Virus genome (UHGV): UHGV-1493261
Origin: a virus
Reading direction: 5' to 3' (one strand)
Length of the DNA: 64,000 bases
In this document: positions 36,942-53,166 of the stretch, piece after piece
Layout of the letters: every line of letters begins with the position of its first letter
Numbering within the stretch: position 1 is the stretch's first letter
Made by a program: the position numbers and the translations under genes
The notes under the pieces: model-generated
Seen by the model: only the letters and a program-made list of their open reading frames with translations
Database searches by the model: none
What the model was told of the DNA's origin: nothing

Positions 36942-36960
36942 TCAATCTCCAGCCTGATGC

Positions 36961-36998
36961 TATAATGTGTGGGCGGGGCGTTCCCCGCCTATTTGAAA
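36961..36998 (+). promoter_or_regulatory. Cassette: TATAAT, GC hairpin (GGGCGGGGCG-TT-CCCCGCC), ATTTGAAA
   Basis: One of five similar cassettes placed 15-30 nt upstream of start codons. Confidence 0.4.
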
Positions 36999-37021
36999 TG
37001 ATTCTTCTACACGAGGCTGAA

Positions 37022-39843: not shown

Positions 39844-39875
39844 AACAGAGGCTATAATGGCCTCTGTTTTCTTAT
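39844..39875 (+). terminator. Rho-independent terminator
   Basis: AACAGAGGC-TATAATG-GCCTCTGTT followed by TTTTCTT; the track ATG at 39857 lies in the loop. Confidence 0.6.
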
Positions 39876-39889
39876 TCTGTGAGGATACC

Positions 39890-41086
39890 ATGAAAGACAA
39901 AGCCCTGGACGTCCCGTACTGCGGTGTCCGCGAAGAAAAGATAAAGTCGGCCAAACCGGTTCTCAGTCCGACCCATACCCGCCTGTCTTACGAATGGATG
40001 CGCGATCGTTATCAGATCCACGTCAAGAAGGACGTCCAGCGCCTTCCTGCTCCTTGGACTGATAATCCCATATTACGCCAGGTTAAATTCTGTAACGTCC
40101 GGAGAGAGCACGACAGGCAGTCTCTCAACCTGATCAATAACATTGTCAAGAACGATGCTCTGGGCATGGCAGACAAGATGTTCAACTGCGTGTTGTTCCG
40201 CATGTTCAACCTCTGGGATCCGATCCAGGCTATCGGCGGCGCGATGACGATCAAAGAATTCGCCAAGATCAACCTCGATGCAACCCGCGAACGACTTCAG
40301 AAGTTCGAGGCCGACGGCGGTAAAGTATTCACCAATGCCTTCAACACGGGCGGTCTGAAGCAATGCCTGGCTTTCCCTGAGATGGTTGTCAACCACAAGG
40401 AGCAGCGCTTCGGTGGGATGATGGTGAATCTGATCTGTAAAGACGGTTCAACCCAGAACATGGATTATAAAGAAGCCAAGGCGATAGCCGAAGCAGAGCC
40501 GGACTTCTACACCATCGAAGGTTGGGAACCGTACATGCCAATGCGTGTCATCCGCTCCCTGAAGGCATTCGTCAACAAGTATCCAAATTATTTCCATGAC
40601 CTGCTGCGCCTTGATACGCCTTTGGAAGTATACCAGCGCATGTACGACGACATCGAAGGGCTTGGTCCATTCCTGGCCTATCAGATCTGGGTTGATTTCA
40701 CGTACATTCCTGGATATCCTTTCAGTGAGAACCACTTCACGGTTGCTGGACCAGGCTGTCGCGCAGGGATTGATCTTCTGTTCCTGAACAAAGACGGTAT
40801 GACCCACGAAGAATGCATCTTCTGGTTGCGGGACAATCAGGACGCAGTTTATGGTCCTCTTGGGTATAACAGGGAAGAATTTTGGTCTGAGGAAGAGCCT
40901 TGGGATCGCCATTTAAATATAATGGCAGGAGAAAATATGTTTTGTGAACTTCAGAAATATACCCGTTGTGTAGAGGCCATACAGCAAGGTAAAAAACCGC
41001 GCGGGAAGGTTGGATACGATGGGGAAGGACGACCTAAAGCGACGACATCTGGTTCTAAAAACCTACTAAATTTATTTAAAAAGTAA
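39890..41086 (+). CDS. Hypothetical protein (398 aa), enzyme-like
   Basis: ATG with GAGGA Shine-Dalgarno after the terminator; no family recognised. Confidence 0.6.
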   Translation: MKDKALDVPYCGVREEKIKSAKPVLSPTHTRLSYEWMRDRYQIHVKKDVQRLPAPWTDNPILRQVKFCNVRREHDRQSLNLINNIVKNDALGMADKMFNCVLFRMFNLWDPIQAIGGAMTIKEFAKINLDATRERLQKFEADGGKVFTNAFNTGGLKQCLAFPEMVVNHKEQRFGGMMVNLICKDGSTQNMDYKEAKAIAEAEPDFYTIEGWEPYMPMRVIRSLKAFVNKYPNYFHDLLRLDTPLEVYQRMYDDIEGLGPFLAYQIWVDFTYIPGYPFSENHFTVAGPGCRAGIDLLFLNKDGMTHEECIFWLRDNQDAVYGPLGYNREEFWSEEEPWDRHLNIMAGENMFCELQKYTRCVEAIQQGKKPRGKVGYDGEGRPKATTSGSKNLLNLFKK

Positions 41087-41145: not shown

Positions 41146-42075
41146 ATGTTTTACGAATTATTGATTTCTAAAGGCGGTAAACCGCATTTTATCAAGAAGT
41201 ATTTGAGGATGATTCAATCTTTCAAATATTCTGATGGTGACTACACTGAATTACACCACATCCTTCCCAAGAGCATGTTCCCTGAATATTCTAAAGATAA
41301 GATCAATTTGGCAAGACTTACTGGCAGGCAACATTATCTTGCCCATGTGTGTTTGGCCTTGGCTTTCCCGAATTCTGATATGGTATATGCTGTTATTTTG
41401 ATGAGCCGTGGGGGTAGGTATACACCAACGGGTATAAAATTTAATTCTCACCTTTACGAAAAGTTAAGGAAAGAATTTGGACAAAGAATATCCAAACTCA
41501 CAAAGGGTGTCTCTAAATGCGTCGGGGCAAACAACCCAATGTATGGGAGAAGAGGAAAGAATAATCCCCAATATAGATATAAGAGAACTCCAGAGCAAGT
41601 CAAGAAAATTACCAAAGGATTGATGAAAATCCATGAAAGGATGGCTTCTGATCCTGAATATAAAAGGCGGGTTTTAGAGAAACGCCGCGCCAACATGGAT
41701 TTAGAACAATTTTCTGAACGTGCCAGGAAAGCTAAACTTGGGGAACTTAATCCAAATCATGGCAAAGATATTACCAACACGTTTACCCCTGAACAACGAC
41801 AGAAACAAATAGAAGGTATTAGAAAAGCCCATTTATCAAAAATGCCCTGGGAGAAACCGCGTTGGTCTGATGAAAAGGACATGTATTGGGCGAAAGCTGA
41901 TAAATTCCTTGAAGCAATGAAAACAATGAAAAGAGCGGAAGCCCTCATGCATGTGTACGGAACAAAGGATTTGAAGGCTTTTAATGCGACAAACAGCATT
42001 ATCGAACGTTTCAATAGAGGGTGGGAACCTTTGAAATGTCCTAAATGGACAGAACGATACGGTTCTTCTGAATAA
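41146..42075 (+). CDS. HNH homing endonuclease with NUMOD3-like motifs
   Basis: TELHHILPKSMFPEY .. NLARLTGRQHYLAHV HNH core; NPMYGRRGKNNP and GELNPNHGKD NUMOD3-like; AT-rich coding sequence; hairpin CAGGAACT..AGTTCCTG immediately upstream. Confidence 0.8.
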   Translation: MFYELLISKGGKPHFIKKYLRMIQSFKYSDGDYTELHHILPKSMFPEYSKDKINLARLTGRQHYLAHVCLALAFPNSDMVYAVILMSRGGRYTPTGIKFNSHLYEKLRKEFGQRISKLTKGVSKCVGANNPMYGRRGKNNPQYRYKRTPEQVKKITKGLMKIHERMASDPEYKRRVLEKRRANMDLEQFSERARKAKLGELNPNHGKDITNTFTPEQRQKQIEGIRKAHLSKMPWEKPRWSDEKDMYWAKADKFLEAMKTMKRAEALMHVYGTKDLKAFNATNSIIERFNRGWEPLKCPKWTERYGSSE

Positions 42076-46090: not shown

Positions 46091-46267
46091 ATGACCGACA
46101 ACAAATTAAAACGCGCCGGACTTGATTGTCTTGACAATTCATTCCGCCCCAGTGATGTTCTGGTCGCCCAAATGGAAAACAACCGGGATTTCATTGAAAC
46201 TATGCTGGAGAACGCCGACGCGAACTCCAAACACTCCAAAGCCCAAAAAGGTCAAAACGATGATTGA
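46091..46267 (+). CDS. Small hypothetical protein (58 aa)
   Basis: ATG overlapping the vWA gene start. Confidence 0.35.
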   Translation: MTDNKLKRAGLDCLDNSFRPSDVLVAQMENNRDFIETMLENADANSKHSKAQKGQNDD

Positions 46268-48461
46268 GTCATTAACATTTAAGAATGCGGTTGCGACCGT
46301 CGCGCCGTCTAACCATGTAATCGTTGTGGATATCTCCGGTTCCATGTATCGTTCACTTCCAGAAGTCCGTAAGCATCTGAAGGAGAACCTGCCTTCCCTG
46401 GTGAAACCCGAAGATACTGTGAGCATCCTTTACTTTTCATCTCGCGGTGATTTCGGAACGGTATTTGCCGGACGTCAGATCGGTGTCGCATCTGACCTGA
46501 GCGAGCTGAATAAGCTGATCGACCGTTTCCTGCAACCATCCGGCTGTACTGGTTTTGTTGAGCCATTGAAACTGGCGATGGATACTGCGCGCGGCCTGAA
46601 GAAACCCGGCTACGTCAACAACCTGGCATTCATGACCGATGGTTATGACAACTGCTGGCGCTCCAATGAAATCCTGGATACCGCCGAAAAACTTCCTTCC
46701 GCGTTCGACAACGTTACATTCATCGAATACGGCTGGCACTGTAACCGTGAACTGCTGGCGCAGATGGCCGAACGCTCTGGTGCAACCCACGTTTTCGCCG
46801 AAGGTCAGACTGAATATCAGACCGAGCTGGAAAACGTGCTGAAGTCATCAGTGCCGAAGGTGAAAGTTGATGTCCCAGTCATCTACACCCATGCCATCTA
46901 CGTCGAAAACGGTGTGGCAACAGTACTGGCGGTGCAGGACGATGACGCTCACCCGGTCGGTTATGTGAGCATCCCTGAGAGCGTCACCAAGCTGTGGGTT
47001 GTAAACCCTAACATGATCGACCAGATGGATAGCCTGACGGACATCCAGGCGGCATACGTGCTGGCGTTCTACGGCGTACACACTATGGACGCAGATCTGG
47101 TTTGGGCTGCGCTGAAGAAGACGGGCGACGTTCGCTTCATCAAACAGTACAGCAACTGCTTCACCAAGCAGGACTACTCCAACATCAAGAACGATCTGAC
47201 CCAGGCCATCGTTGATGACCAGCTGCGCGGCGTTGACGGTATTGACTATGACCTGGTTCCAGCTGAAGATGCGACCACCGTCGTTGATGTGCTGACGTAC
47301 CTGGCTGAAGCTGGTGTGCCTGTTGCTACCAAGCATCCGATGTTCTCCTATAAGAGTATCGGGCGCGGTACGGTTCAGAAAACCGACGACACCGAAGACA
47401 AGCTGGCAGAACAGATCGCGAATGCTCAGTCCAAAGAAGAGCGTAAAGCCCTGGCTCTCAAGCTGGCAGAACACGAAGAGTGGAACCCGACGTTCGAACC
47501 TACCAACGACCTGGGTGTTGTGCCAATCAGCGATTTGGTCTATAATTCCGAACGCCCGAACATCAGTGTGCGTACAATTCAACACGGTACTGTGGCTGTG
47601 CCTGAATTCGCACAGAAGAAGTTTGGCCTGCCTGAAGAACTGGATACTTTCCAGTGGCGCAACTACACCATCGTCAAAGATGGTATCATCAACGTGAAGA
47701 CCCTGCCGTTCAAGGCTGATATCGAAGTTGTACAGAAGCTGATCGAAATGGGCGTCCACGTGTTTGGTGGTCCGGAAGTGTTCATCTTGAACCTGGAAAG
47801 CGTACCGCTGGTCAACCGCGCCATGGTCAAGAACATCAGTGCTGCTCAGTTCTTTGCGGATAATGTCCGTCTGGAAGCCCTGAAAGGCAAGCAGAAGGTG
47901 CTGAAGTTCTATCGAGACGCCCTGGTTGGTAAGGGTAACGCCAAAGGCCTGGCAGTACAGTACGGCGCTGAGGCGGCCGAGTTCCTGTCCTCCTATGGCA
48001 TCCGCGATTACGGCTTCTCACCGAAGACTGAGACCAAAGAGTCTACCGACTTCTACATGAGCCGTGAGCTGAACGTGAAGATCGCTGGCGCTTCTTCTCT
48101 ACCGTCTATCGCAGCGGTACAGAAGAAGATAGCCGAGAACAAGAAACTCAATGCTGGTGACTTGTTCATCGCCAATGCGCTGAAGGAGTACGAAGCATTC
48201 GTGAAGTCTCCTATGATCACTGCCGTGCCTGAAGCCTTACAGAAACATCTGATCGAAAACTGGATCGACGCTGCTGCCAAGGCGGCCATCACCGAAGTCC
48301 GTGCTCTGAACAAGACGCTGTCTAAAGTGGTGTATGGTATCGTTGCTGGTCATGGCTGGTTCACCGACCTCGACCTGGAAGAGTCCACCATGGAAGTTGA
48401 AGTGGATGGGGTGAAGTACAAGGTCACTGCCGAACTGGCAGAGAAAGAAATCAAAATCTAA
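46260..48461 (+). CDS. von Willebrand factor A (vWA) domain protein (733 aa)
   Basis: MIDAS motif VIVVDISGSM (DxSxS) near the N-terminus; AAAGG Shine-Dalgarno; long C-terminal region of unknown fold. Confidence 0.7.
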   Translation: MIESLTFKNAVATVAPSNHVIVVDISGSMYRSLPEVRKHLKENLPSLVKPEDTVSILYFSSRGDFGTVFAGRQIGVASDLSELNKLIDRFLQPSGCTGFVEPLKLAMDTARGLKKPGYVNNLAFMTDGYDNCWRSNEILDTAEKLPSAFDNVTFIEYGWHCNRELLAQMAERSGATHVFAEGQTEYQTELENVLKSSVPKVKVDVPVIYTHAIYVENGVATVLAVQDDDAHPVGYVSIPESVTKLWVVNPNMIDQMDSLTDIQAAYVLAFYGVHTMDADLVWAALKKTGDVRFIKQYSNCFTKQDYSNIKNDLTQAIVDDQLRGVDGIDYDLVPAEDATTVVDVLTYLAEAGVPVATKHPMFSYKSIGRGTVQKTDDTEDKLAEQIANAQSKEERKALALKLAEHEEWNPTFEPTNDLGVVPISDLVYNSERPNISVRTIQHGTVAVPEFAQKKFGLPEELDTFQWRNYTIVKDGIINVKTLPFKADIEVVQKLIEMGVHVFGGPEVFILNLESVPLVNRAMVKNISAAQFFADNVRLEALKGKQKVLKFYRDALVGKGNAKGLAVQYGAEAAEFLSSYGIRDYGFSPKTETKESTDFYMSRELNVKIAGASSLPSIAAVQKKIAENKKLNAGDLFIANALKEYEAFVKSPMITAVPEALQKHLIENWIDAAAKAAITEVRALNKTLSKVVYGIVAGHGWFTDLDLEESTMEVEVDGVKYKVTAELAEKEIKI

Positions 48462-48503: not shown

Positions 48504-48830
48504 ATGAGCAGTAAACCAACATATGTTGAAGTCATGCGTCATCTGGCTCAGTACGCCACTGACAATTTGAACTTAGATGCAGATGAGGTGAAATACCCAG
48601 ACGTCAAGAAAATGATTGACGGCGAAGTTGTCATAGACGATGCGTTGGACAAGTTTGCAGGCCTCCGCACCAAGAAAGATCTGGGTGGTGACGAACTCGA
48701 TACCATCGAAATCGTGATGGACCTGGAAGAAGAGTTCAACGTCGAAATCGACGACGGTTGGCTAGGTAGTAAAGGCGATGACCCGACCATGGGTGAACTC
48801 GCTGAACTCGTGGTTGCCCTGCGCAAATAA
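48504..48830 (+). CDS. Acyl carrier protein-like protein lacking the phosphopantetheine-attachment serine
   Basis: DLGGDELDTIEIVMDLEEEFNVEIDD versus E. coli ACP [26 protein letters not shown]: 19 of 26 identical, with the conserved Ser replaced by Glu (GAA at 48693-48695). GGGAGAAG Shine-Dalgarno. Confidence 0.7.
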   Translation: MSSKPTYVEVMRHLAQYATDNLNLDADEVKYPDVKKMIDGEVVIDDALDKFAGLRTKKDLGGDELDTIEIVMDLEEEFNVEIDDGWLGSKGDDPTMGELAELVVALRK

Positions 48831-48836
48831 CAGAAG

Positions 48837-48862
48837 TCCCCAACAAACGTTGGGGATTTTTA
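48837..48862 (+). terminator. Rho-independent terminator
   Basis: TCCCCAAC-aaac-GTTGGGGA followed by TTTTT. Confidence 0.6.
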
Positions 48863-48872
48863 CTTTTAGGGG

Positions 48873-48902
48873 GTTTACTTCCTCTAAGGAATGTCCTATT
48901 AT
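48873..48902 (+). promoter_or_regulatory. Sigma70-like early promoter candidate
   Basis: GTTTAC -35 (T4 early-like), 18-nt spacer, TATTAT -10. Confidence 0.45.
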
Positions 48903-48953
48903 TCAATAACTGGCGAACGATGGGTTCACCGGGTTGAAAGGTAAGATTATATC

Positions 48954-49193
48954 ATGAAGAACAAAATGGTCGAAACTTCAGTAGAGATTGATCGCAATTG
49001 GGGATTGCTCCGCGCTAAAGGGTTCCGTCGTGTGTATGCGACCAAAGAAGTCTACGCACAGCGCCGTGACGTTATCATCAGCAAGAAAGGCAAAGAGTGG
49101 GTTGCTGAAGAAGTTGATGTCGAGACAGGCATCGTAGGAAAGGTAAAGGCCAAGGCCGTGATCCTCTTCGCTCTTCTGAAGCACATCAGTTAA
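48954..49193 (+). CDS. Hypothetical protein (79 aa)
   Basis: ATG with AAGGTAAGA Shine-Dalgarno. Confidence 0.5.
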   Translation: MKNKMVETSVEIDRNWGLLRAKGFRRVYATKEVYAQRRDVIISKKGKEWVAEEVDVETGIVGKVKAKAVILFALLKHIS

Positions 49194-49196
49194 TTC

Positions 49197-49238
49197 TATA
49201 ACTTTGGGCGGGGTATGATTACCCCGTCTATTTGAAAT
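49197..49238 (+). promoter_or_regulatory. Cassette: TATAAC, hairpin CGGGGTATGATTACCCCG, TATTTGAAAT
   Basis: Hairpin core identical to the copy at 49765-49786. Confidence 0.45.
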
Positions 49239-49252
49239 GCAGGAACTATACC

Positions 49253-49759
49253 ATGACCGATCAACAAATTCAAGATTTATTTTACCTCGTCCATGATAAG
49301 TCCCACATCATGCGCCCCGGTACTGTTTCCCCTGCCGTCCGTGATCTGGTGCAAGAATTGCGCGAACCACAGACGACCACACTTTATCGCGGGTTGCCTA
49401 AAGAGGACGTTGCGCGTTTAGAGATGATGTTTGAACGAGGCGACATGTTCCAGACATGGGATTCTTGCCTTAGCTTCAGTGAACTGAAGCATGTGGCCAA
49501 AAAATTTTCTAAATCGTACGGAACCCAAGCTGTTGCCCGCATTTGTTACAAACATCGAAACAGACTCCCGGAGGGGCTTAATGTCTATGGTTCTCTAGAA
49601 AAATTTGTGAACAAAGGCGATGAATCAGAAATGGATATGCTGGACTTGGCGTCCATGGAGAAAGAATGGATATTCTGCCAGCCTCGCGTCATACCAGTTT
49701 CAAGAAAAATGGCAACAGACGGGACGATGGTTTTTACCGTATCACTTGTTACTCTATAA
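49253..49759 (+). CDS. Hypothetical protein (168 aa), candidate mono-ADP-ribosyltransferase
   Basis: Possible R-S-E triad: YRG, SxS in WDSCLSFSE, ExE in MEKEWIF. Assignment is speculative. Confidence 0.5.
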   Translation: MTDQQIQDLFYLVHDKSHIMRPGTVSPAVRDLVQELREPQTTTLYRGLPKEDVARLEMMFERGDMFQTWDSCLSFSELKHVAKKFSKSYGTQAVARICYKHRNRLPEGLNVYGSLEKFVNKGDESEMDMLDLASMEKEWIFCQPRVIPVSRKMATDGTMVFTVSLVTL

Positions 49760-49796
49760 CCCACGGCGGGGTATGATTACCCCGCCCATTTGAAAC
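49755..49796 (+). promoter_or_regulatory. Cassette: TATAAC, hairpin GGCGGGGTATGATTACCCCGCC, CATTTGAAAC
   Basis: Near-identical repeat of the cassette at 49197. Confidence 0.45.
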
Positions 49797-49810
49797 CAAG
49801 AGACTATATC

Positions 49811-50185
49811 ATGAAAAAGTTAATCCTCGCTGTTGCCCTGCTGGGCGCTTCCTTTGCTGCTGTTTCCGCTCCTCCTGTCATTACCGGGGTGTCTACCAAC
49901 GGTGTTTATGCTTTCAAGGCGTATGGTCAAGACCTCGTTCTGTATAAGAACGGGAAGATGATTGAGCGCTGCGTATCAGAAGACGTGAATCGTGGGATCG
50001 ACAATCAGGGTAGCCCATACGTCCTGGACATCTATGCCTGCTCCAACGGGACGAAGTCCTTTGGTGTCAAGACCTTTGGCAACGTCGCCGTCGGCGGCTG
50101 GGGCTTCATGATCGAAACCCGCAACCACCAACCGGTCAAGACCATGCAAGAAGAGTTCTTGATCTCTGTCGGGGGTACGTTATGA
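49811..50185 (+). CDS. Secreted small protein (Sec signal peptide)
   Basis: MKKLILAVALLGASFAAVSA then a mature domain with two Cys. Confidence 0.6.
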   Translation: MKKLILAVALLGASFAAVSAPPVITGVSTNGVYAFKAYGQDLVLYKNGKMIERCVSEDVNRGIDNQGSPYVLDIYACSNGTKSFGVKTFGNVAVGGWGFMIETRNHQPVKTMQEEFLISVGGTL

Positions 50186-50661: not shown

Positions 50662-51111
50662 ATGTTCCTTACATCCTTTATTGACTGGTTGAACATCATT
50701 AACGGCCTGAGGATCCCTGTTGGGAACCTCGGGCTTTCTCGTTCTTCTATGCCGCAAATCGATGCCGACAAACAAGAAGATTTTCACAAATATCTTGAAG
50801 ACAACGGCGTGTCCATAGATGCTGCGCAAGTGCCCATCAAAATGCTTCGTCTTACCCAGAACGAAATCAACAAGATGAAGGTCTGGAAGATTATGAAGCA
50901 GATCAGAAATAAGAAACCTATGGGTCGAGTTTGGGTGTCTTCTGACAATTACGTTGTTGACGGTTCTCACCGATTTGTCGCTGCGTTGAACATGGACGGC
51001 AAACAGCGCATGAAGGTCTACAAAGTTGATTTACCAGCGATGGAATTTGTTAAACTCGCTAAACAGTTTCAGGGTGTGCGATACAGAACGGTCAGCGATA
51101 CCCGTTTCTGA
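50662..51111 (+). CDS. ParB/Srx-fold (ParB-like nuclease domain) protein
   Basis: VVDGSHRFVAAL matches the ParB N-terminal DGxHR motif; GAGGTG Shine-Dalgarno. Confidence 0.55.
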   Translation: MFLTSFIDWLNIINGLRIPVGNLGLSRSSMPQIDADKQEDFHKYLEDNGVSIDAAQVPIKMLRLTQNEINKMKVWKIMKQIRNKKPMGRVWVSSDNYVVDGSHRFVAALNMDGKQRMKVYKVDLPAMEFVKLAKQFQGVRYRTVSDTRF

Positions 51112-53110: not shown

Positions 53111-53121
53111 TCAATAACCTC

Positions 53122-53157
53122 GGGCGGCTTATCATAAAGCTGCCCTTTCATTTGAGT
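53122..53157 (+). promoter_or_regulatory. Cassette: GC hairpin (GGGCGGCTT..AAGCTGCCC), CATTTGAG
   Basis: Same architecture as the cassettes at 36961, 42116, 49197 and 49755. Confidence 0.3.
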
Positions 53158-53166
53158 GACTATATC

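Follow-up and report, generated by a model that had tools for sequence, protein, structure and literature searches.

The window, that is, the whole stretch of 64,000 nucleotides analyzed here, is by its sequence an Ackermannviridae phage genome of the Agtrevirus/Kuttervirus-like type. The 2-kb stretch around its putative ADP-ribosyltransferase (ART) gene shares 95.6% identity with Escherichia phage AV101 and 94.6% with Shigella phage MK-13 (Agtrevirus). The locus matches about 200 records, nearly all of which come from phages infecting Salmonella, Escherichia, Dickeya, Klebsiella, and Shigella. The gene and its immediate surroundings comprise the following features:

48837..48902, + strand: hairpin and T-run resembling an intrinsic terminator (48837-48868), with a sigma-70-like TTTACT-17-TATTAT (48874-48902) behind it
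48954..49193, + strand: upstream neighbor, 79-aa protein, phrog_804, conserved with or without the ART gene
49195..49256, + strand: left copy of a 62-nt direct repeat, consisting of TCTATAAC, a GC-rich hairpin (49205-49230), ATTTGAAA, AGGA, and ATG
49253..49759, + strand: ART gene (open reading frame and translation), 168 aa, predicted Mod-family (ModA/ModB-like) mono-ADP-ribosyltransferase
within 49253..49759, + strand: putative catalytic motif residues R46-G47, S74-x-S76, and E136-x-E138
49753..49814, + strand: right copy of the 62-nt direct repeat, with a hairpin at 49765-49786, overlapping the last codons and the stop of the ART gene
49811..50185, + strand: downstream neighbor, 124-aa protein, phrog_5474, with the N-terminal signal peptide MKKLILAVALLGASFAAVSA

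The preliminary description placed a reading frame of 168 amino acids at 49253-49759, and start, stop, and length agree with it exactly. The gene begins with the ATG at 49253 and ends with the TAA stop codon at 49757-49759 on the + strand, with an AGGA Shine-Dalgarno sequence (49241-49244) located 8 nt upstream of the ATG. All close homologs begin with MTDQQ or a near variant, which identifies ATG 49253 as the true start; a TTG at 49232 was dropped on the same ground. Opposite-strand reading frames across the gene reach at most 59 aa and were disregarded. Compared to its orthologs in MK-13, Cba120, and "barely", the gene shows dN/dS values of 0.12-0.28; it is a real gene under purifying selection.

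Within the protein, the motifs are arranged in the order Y45-R46-G47, S74-F-S76 (inside SCLSFS, residues 71-76), and E136-K-E138, the last followed by WIF. The loose ordered pattern [YFW]RG..Sx[ST]..ExE recurred in 27 of 20,000 composition-preserving shuffles of the protein, a rarity that, taken alone, is suggestive only. The decisive evidence for the R-S-ExE motif is conservation. A search for close relatives, covering 5.8 billion proteins, yielded nine relatives with 56-93% identity, in all of which R46, G47, S74, E136, and E138 are invariant, and 58 proteins at E <=1e-3 were retrieved when 1.84 billion cluster representatives were searched exhaustively with an HMM. In an alignment of 48 homologs with a mean column identity of about 25%, G47, S/T76, and E138 are retained in every sequence, R46 and E136 in 47 of 48, and S74 in 46 of 48. 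Motif conservation in homologs had been named beforehand as the point at which the proposed YRG..SxS..ExE triad could fail, and R-S-ExE is nearly invariant across the 48. The triad stands, with its three motifs conserved and in the order proposed, and with S74 rather than S71 as the conserved serine.

Profile comparison relates the protein to the small ADP-ribosyltransferases of phage T4. Against the 48-sequence profile, T4 ModB was matched by hhalign with a probability of 99.1% (E 1.3e-18, 163 columns) and T4 ModA with a probability of 97.6% (E 4.1e-12, 157 columns). The catalytic residues are in register: R46 corresponds to ModB R73 and ModA R72, S74-F-S76 to ModB S99-F-T101 and likewise to the S-x-S of ModA, and E136-K-E138-W to ModB E171-Q-E173-W and ModA E163-Q-E165. 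T4 Alt gave no significant profile match (hhalign probability 0.4%), so that, of the Alt/ModA/ModB class suggested initially, the ModA/ModB part is retained and Alt drops out. Identity to both ModA and ModB is only about 18%, for which reason their targets are not transferable to the window protein. PHROG 832, "RNA polymerase ADP-ribosylase", is matched at E 5.8e-15, and Pfam PF26816 (Mod_ADP_RT) is precomputed on the homologs P0003 (81% identical), P0006, and P0011.

A local Pfam scan of the window protein returned nothing above the cut-off; this result is uninformative, as PF26816 is absent from the local set and T4 ModA and ModB were also unmatched there. A RavZ_cat match below the cut-off (E 0.041) was rejected as a chance match. 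The NCBIfam search and a single-sequence search of PDB sequences gave no match. With the profile, the PDB sequences yielded two arginine-specific toxins, Vis (E 6.4e-5) and ExoT (E 1e-3), with YRG, STS, and ExE aligned, and individual family members matched Pfam DRAT, ADPrib_exo_Tox, and ART weakly. For ModA and ModB, the R-S-ExE motif has been described as characteristic of Arg-specific ARTs, and R73 of ModB is catalytically essential, as its mutation abolishes activity (PMC10468400). The Mod family is among the most frequent viral ART families, and a reported 30% of myoviruses encode an ART (PMC9503650). On this sequence evidence, we assign the window protein to the Mod family within the R-S-E clade. 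As the ExE form of the motif is intact, arginine is the most likely acceptor, and the enzyme is predicted to be arginine-specific.

Structure prediction had been proposed earlier as a check, with the lack of an ART fold counting against the idea; an ART fold was found. AlphaFold2 reached a pLDDT of 81.7 and a pTM of 0.74 with a 10-sequence alignment, and a pLDDT of 93.8 and a pTM of 0.88 with the 48-sequence alignment. In the model, R46 lies in the first core strand, S74-S76 are located in the next strand, leading into a helix, and E138 opens a later strand; this predicted layout of strands and motifs is the usual ART arrangement. When the better model was compared to the PDB with Foldseek, the best 50 matches were all of the ART kind. 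VIP2-type enzymes are found among the structural matches, and Scabin matches far less well than the enzymes C3, Vis, and HopU1, which target proteins. Among the viral structures of BFVD, the best named matches after the protein's own ortholog are T4-like ModA and ModB (E ~1e-10, TM ~0.7). A small single-domain ART fold of ~170-210 aa is one of the marks of the Mod family, and the window protein has this build.

Two further positions are of note in the alignment. The N-terminal motif H14-D15-K16-x-H18 (49292-49306) is kept in 46, 43, 47, and 41 of the 48 homologs, respectively, and distinguishes the subfamily of the window protein from T4 ModA and ModB, in which the lysine alone has a counterpart. 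This segment was mostly of very low confidence in the first AlphaFold model and attained a mean pLDDT of ~86-89 with the deeper alignment; it is possibly a binding surface for the substrate or for an NAD cap. In the clade of the window protein, L109 and V111 occupy the place where most relatives carry an aromatic pair (G-F-x-Y). We take this region to correspond to F127/F129 of ModA, residues that Tiemann et al. in 2004 reportedly found to be important. The change could alter NAD+ binding or activity.

The three T4 enzymes differ in size and role. ModB (207 aa) ADP-ribosylates and RNAylates the ribosomal proteins S1 and L2, with EF-Tu and trigger factor as further targets, ModA (200 aa) attaches ADP-ribose to Arg265 in each of the two alpha subunits of RNA polymerase, and Alt (682 aa) is a capsid-packaged virion protein of the Alt/VIP2 family. 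The window protein resembles ModB in being a small, single-domain protein with full-length homology, the R-S-ExE motif in register, a common fold, and a dispensable phage gene. In contrast to ModB, it is 39 residues shorter, mostly at the N-terminus, shares only ~18% identity with it, and belongs to an Ackermannviridae rather than a Straboviridae phage, with another genomic context. Homology to ModA likewise spans the full length, the WRG, S-x-S, and EQE motifs of ModA are in register, and proteins annotated as ModA belong to the best named matches among viral structures. However, the ModA match is weaker than that of ModB, and L109/V111 stand where ModA presumably has F127/F129. Alt belongs to the same R-S-E clade of ARTs, but is four times larger and resides in the virion, whereas the window protein, at 168 aa, lies outside the Alt/VIP2 family.

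The bacterial enzymes, comprising arginine-specific R-S-ExE toxins and effectors as well as C3 exoenzymes, are more distant, with Vis, ExoS/ExoT, HopU1, Tre1, iota/CDTa/VIP2, and C3 showing 6-19% identity. Unlike bacterial ART toxins and effectors, the window protein is without secretion, translocation, or immunity partners. C3 exoenzymes carry QxE and modify Asn, whereas the window protein carries ExE. ART toxin-immunity modules (Tre1/Tri1, DarT/DarG, ART-ARH) are recognized by an adjacent immunity gene or a defense-model match, neither of which was found at the window locus.

The ART gene occupies a defined slot in the genome. The gene order is vWA-domain protein (733 aa), acyl carrier protein, 79-aa protein, ART gene, variable small genes, 149-aa protein, and spanins, and the slot is identical in MK-13, Cba120, and "barely". 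The genes for the vWA-domain protein (46260-48461) and the acyl carrier protein (48504-48830) are always upstream of the slot. A 42%-identical metagenomic relative (L009:625-3825) keeps the order, with a 757-aa gene without a Pfam match followed by an acyl carrier protein and the ART. Downstream, the 149-aa protein (50662-51111) matches only the middle (316-467) of the 740-position phrog_2859 profile, and its ortholog in the "barely" record is named putative structural protein.

By tblastn, the ART gene is present in 78 phage records. In 67 of these the phages infect Salmonella, Escherichia, Shigella, or Enterobacter, and those examined are Kuttervirus or Agtrevirus; the remaining 11 records belong to Erwinia phages, whose genomes measure ~265 kb and whose proteins show ~28-30% identity. 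These 78 records compare to the ~200 matching the locus as a whole, and in phage Maynard the 79-aa gene is followed directly by the next gene, without an ART gene. The location in an accessory region, as described previously, is upheld by these counts; the ART gene is dispensable and accessory. In Kuttervirus and Agtrevirus phages, two alleles occur in the same slot, with ~95% and ~57% identity to the window protein, respectively; identity of the flanking genes is 61-98%. The 57% allele (at the protein level) is found in "barely" (L005:3001-3513), PhiSH19, and others. The two allele types imply either allele replacement or fast evolution at the slot.

An HMM search of all six-frame reading frames of the window for a second Mod-like gene found the ART gene alone. 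Pfam gave no match for the neighbors of the ART gene, among which no ARH, macrodomain, or other immunity partner was found, and PADLOC gave no match for the ART protein and three neighbors. In MK-13, a nicotinamide phosphoribosyltransferase gene (NAD+ salvage; L001:1-1194) lies ~3.5 kb upstream of the ART gene. A link to NAD+ salvage was dropped, as tblastn found no nicotinamide phosphoribosyltransferase in the 64-kb window.

The ART gene is bracketed by the two copies of the 62-nt direct repeat, which are 81% identical and 558 bp apart. The exact 17-mer GGGGTATGATTACCCCG occurs in the repeats twice, compared to 0.08 matches (<=3 mismatches) expected by chance. Each copy contains the hairpin CGGGGTA-TGAT-TACCCCG, with folding energies of -18.9 kcal/mol (z -2.4) for the left and -20 kcal/mol (z -3.3) for the right hairpin, followed by ATTTGAAA, a Shine-Dalgarno sequence, and an ATG. 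The right copy provides the ribosome-binding site and the ATG (49811) of the next gene. The consensus of the element reads (C)TATAA(C/T), GC-rich hairpin, YATTTGA, ACTATAYC-ATG. Weaker copies are located at 36957-37000 and 53111-53166, resulting in two strong and two weak copies in the window. Maynard carries a single hybrid copy, whose left half resembles the left repeat and whose right half resembles the right repeat, as recombination between both repeat copies would leave it. The 558-bp ART cassette was probably gained, lost, or replaced via recombination between copies of the hairpin element.

A similar arrangement is known from T4-type phages, whose PeSL cassettes (promoter-early stem-loops) contain near-consensus sigma-70 promoters and mediate modular shuffling (PMC2839356). 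As in a PeSL, the intergenic repeat reaches from the stop codon of the preceding gene across a GC-rich stem-loop as far as a Shine-Dalgarno sequence and start codon. The gene between the repeats is non-essential and lies in a variable region, and in a related phage (Maynard) a single repeat copy stands without this gene. In contrast to a PeSL, the consensus scan detected no sigma-70 promoter in the repeat. The preliminary description had given the gene its own promoter/hairpin cassette. Of this, the hairpin is borne out by the 62-nt repeat and its folding energies, and the promoter is not, as the sigma-70 consensus scan found no promoter-like site on the + strand of either repeat copy. The only -10-like hexamers, TATAAC (49197-49202) and TATGAT (49214-49219) in the left copy, were recognized by eye; the best -35 partner of either agrees at no more than 3 of 6 positions, and a sigma-70 promoter inside the repeat was rejected. 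The hairpin was also rejected as a canonical intrinsic terminator: its T-tract is poor (ATTTGAAA), and the scan does not list it.

The element at 48837..48902 is a likely start of a transcription unit with the 79-aa gene, the ART gene, and downstream genes, judging from its sequence. The fold of 48828-48956 has an energy of -46.1 kcal/mol (z -5.4), and the subsequent TTTACT-17-TATTAT, located 350 nt upstream of the ART gene and ahead of the 79-aa gene, matches the consensus at 9 of 12 positions; the promoter scan of the region gave 4 promoter-like sites compared to a mean of 4.4 in shuffles. As no sigma-70-like promoter was detected in the repeat and the nearest promoter-like site precedes the 79-aa gene, the ART gene is probably co-transcribed with the latter. 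The same weak consensus match would be consistent with early expression. A search for transcriptome data in the literature on Ackermannviridae found nothing specific.

Assignment of these proteins to the Mod family is already established by PHROG 832, Pfam PF26816, and RefSeq, which names the 93-97%-identical orthologs "RNA polymerase ADP-ribosylase"; within the 90%-identity cluster of the window protein, the members from Cba120, Det7, MK-13, Mutine, and SeF6a bear this name. The identical protein in NCBI, WP_242244004.1, is listed as "hypothetical protein [Escherichia coli]". It is seen on contigs up to 154,887 bp, suggesting a complete Ackermannviridae phage genome within a bacterial assembly. 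A literature search for Ackermannviridae ARTs found nothing specific for the window protein or its orthologs. Our analysis adds a check that the annotation is backed by genuine homology, by catalytic residues that are all in place, and by an ART fold, and it advises caution about the target implied by the RefSeq name. In the T4 record, ModB bears the same product name, yet the accompanying note lists S1, EF-Tu, and trigger factor as its targets. The RefSeq name says more than has been shown.

The product of the gene is very probably a Mod-family mono-ADP-ribosyltransferase (R-S-E clade) that consists of one domain and is catalytically competent. Its homology and fold and the retention of its catalytic residues are what the analysis shows; enzymatic activity, arginine specificity, target identity, and timing of expression are what we infer from its sequence. 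We postulate that, after infection, NAD+ would be bound in a cleft formed by R46 (strand 1), S74-F-S76 (strand 2 and the following helix), and E136-x-E138 (start of the fifth strand). ADP-ribose would then be transferred, most likely to arginine side chains, of one or a few host gene-expression proteins, and this modification would shift the cell in favor of phage production. Among R-S-E enzymes, some act mainly as NAD+ glycohydrolases and others modify nucleic acids, and the same is possible for the window protein.

As to the target, roles resembling those of ModA and ModB are about equally plausible, and each is put forward here tentatively. A functional equivalent of T4 ModA, which would ADP-ribosylate the RNA polymerase alpha subunit at Arg265, is suggested by the RefSeq name of the orthologs (MK-13, Cba120, Det7, and others), by the match to PHROG 832, and by full-length homology to ModA. 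However, the name was passed on from a PHROG family in which enzymes acting on different targets are grouped together, and it is shared by T4 ModB, for which other targets (S1, EF-Tu, trigger factor) are noted. Moreover, the profile is nearer to ModB (E 1e-18) than to ModA (4e-12) at ~18% identity, and no supporting experiment was found in the literature. The profile slightly favors a ModB-like enzyme, whose targets would lie in the translation apparatus (S1, L2, EF-Tu) and which may use NAD-capped RNA for RNAylation. ModB RNAylates S1 and L2 and needs R73 for this (PMC10468400), the residue with which R46 aligns. Yet RNAylation is not predictable from sequence, as its determinants are not established (PMC10468400), and at 18% identity the margin of ModB over ModA is modest.

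Other functions appear less probable. The accessory status and divergent alleles would be explained by a counter-defense or host-range factor that ADP-ribosylates an immunity protein specific to certain host strains, or some other target outside the core: presence of the gene varies among close relatives, and the 57% allele sits between far more conserved flanks. We regard such a role as unlikely, since no known defense or anti-defense family was matched (PADLOC gave none), and T4 ModA and ModB are likewise non-essential accessory genes, yet not anti-defense proteins. It is highly improbable that the protein is the toxin in a module for toxin-immunity or superinfection exclusion, or a nucleic-acid-targeting ART of the DarT, pierisin, or Scabin type. 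The adjacent genes, encoding the 79-aa protein (phrog_804) and the signal-peptide protein, have no Pfam or PADLOC match and include nothing found to suggest ART immunity, with no ARH or macrodomain partner; the lack of both an immunity-type neighbor and a defense-system match argues against a toxin-immunity module. Against a nucleic-acid target, the match to Scabin is far weaker than those to C3, Vis, and HopU1, and the sequence homology is to ModA/ModB. An inactive ART-fold relic or structural protein would fit the replacement of the F/Y pair of most relatives by L109/V111. It is scarcely credible given that the triad is invariant in the ten close homologs and 96-100% conserved in distant ones, and that the gene is under strong purifying selection (dN/dS 0.12-0.28).

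More speculatively, and in our view doubtful, the protein may represent a distinct Mod subfamily, marked by the N-terminal H-D-K-x-H and by a conserved linkage to the vWA-domain and acyl carrier proteins, whose substrate would be neither RNA polymerase alpha nor one of the known ModB targets. Such a substrate could be a strain-specific host defense protein or a phage-encoded partner, or the reaction could consist in the attachment of NAD-capped RNA. If this were true, gain, loss, and allele replacement of the cassette would reflect an ongoing arms race between host and phage.

Returning to the Mod-family enzyme as such, phages employ ADP-ribosyltransferases to reprogram transcription and translation in the host, and protein RNAylation became known through ModB. 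Phages of the genera Kuttervirus and Agtrevirus find wide use in biocontrol and therapy of Salmonella and E. coli. A Mod-like enzyme that is present in only about one third of these phages, and in two divergent alleles, could affect host takeover or host range.

Further observations concern other parts of the window and a distant relative. A 5-hydroxymethyl-dU DNA kinase is encoded at 39857-41086 (Pfam PF18723, E 1e-78), which we take to belong to the thymidine hypermodification pathway typical of ViI-like phages. Its gene is directly followed by a homing endonuclease gene at 41146-42075 (phrog_655, E 2e-60), whose product has an HNH-type N-terminus. We know of no description of a Mod-like ART fused to a type IB topoisomerase; this combination is found in the 763-aa metagenomic protein P0013 (L010:1755-4046), where the Mod-like ART domain comprises residues 10-146.
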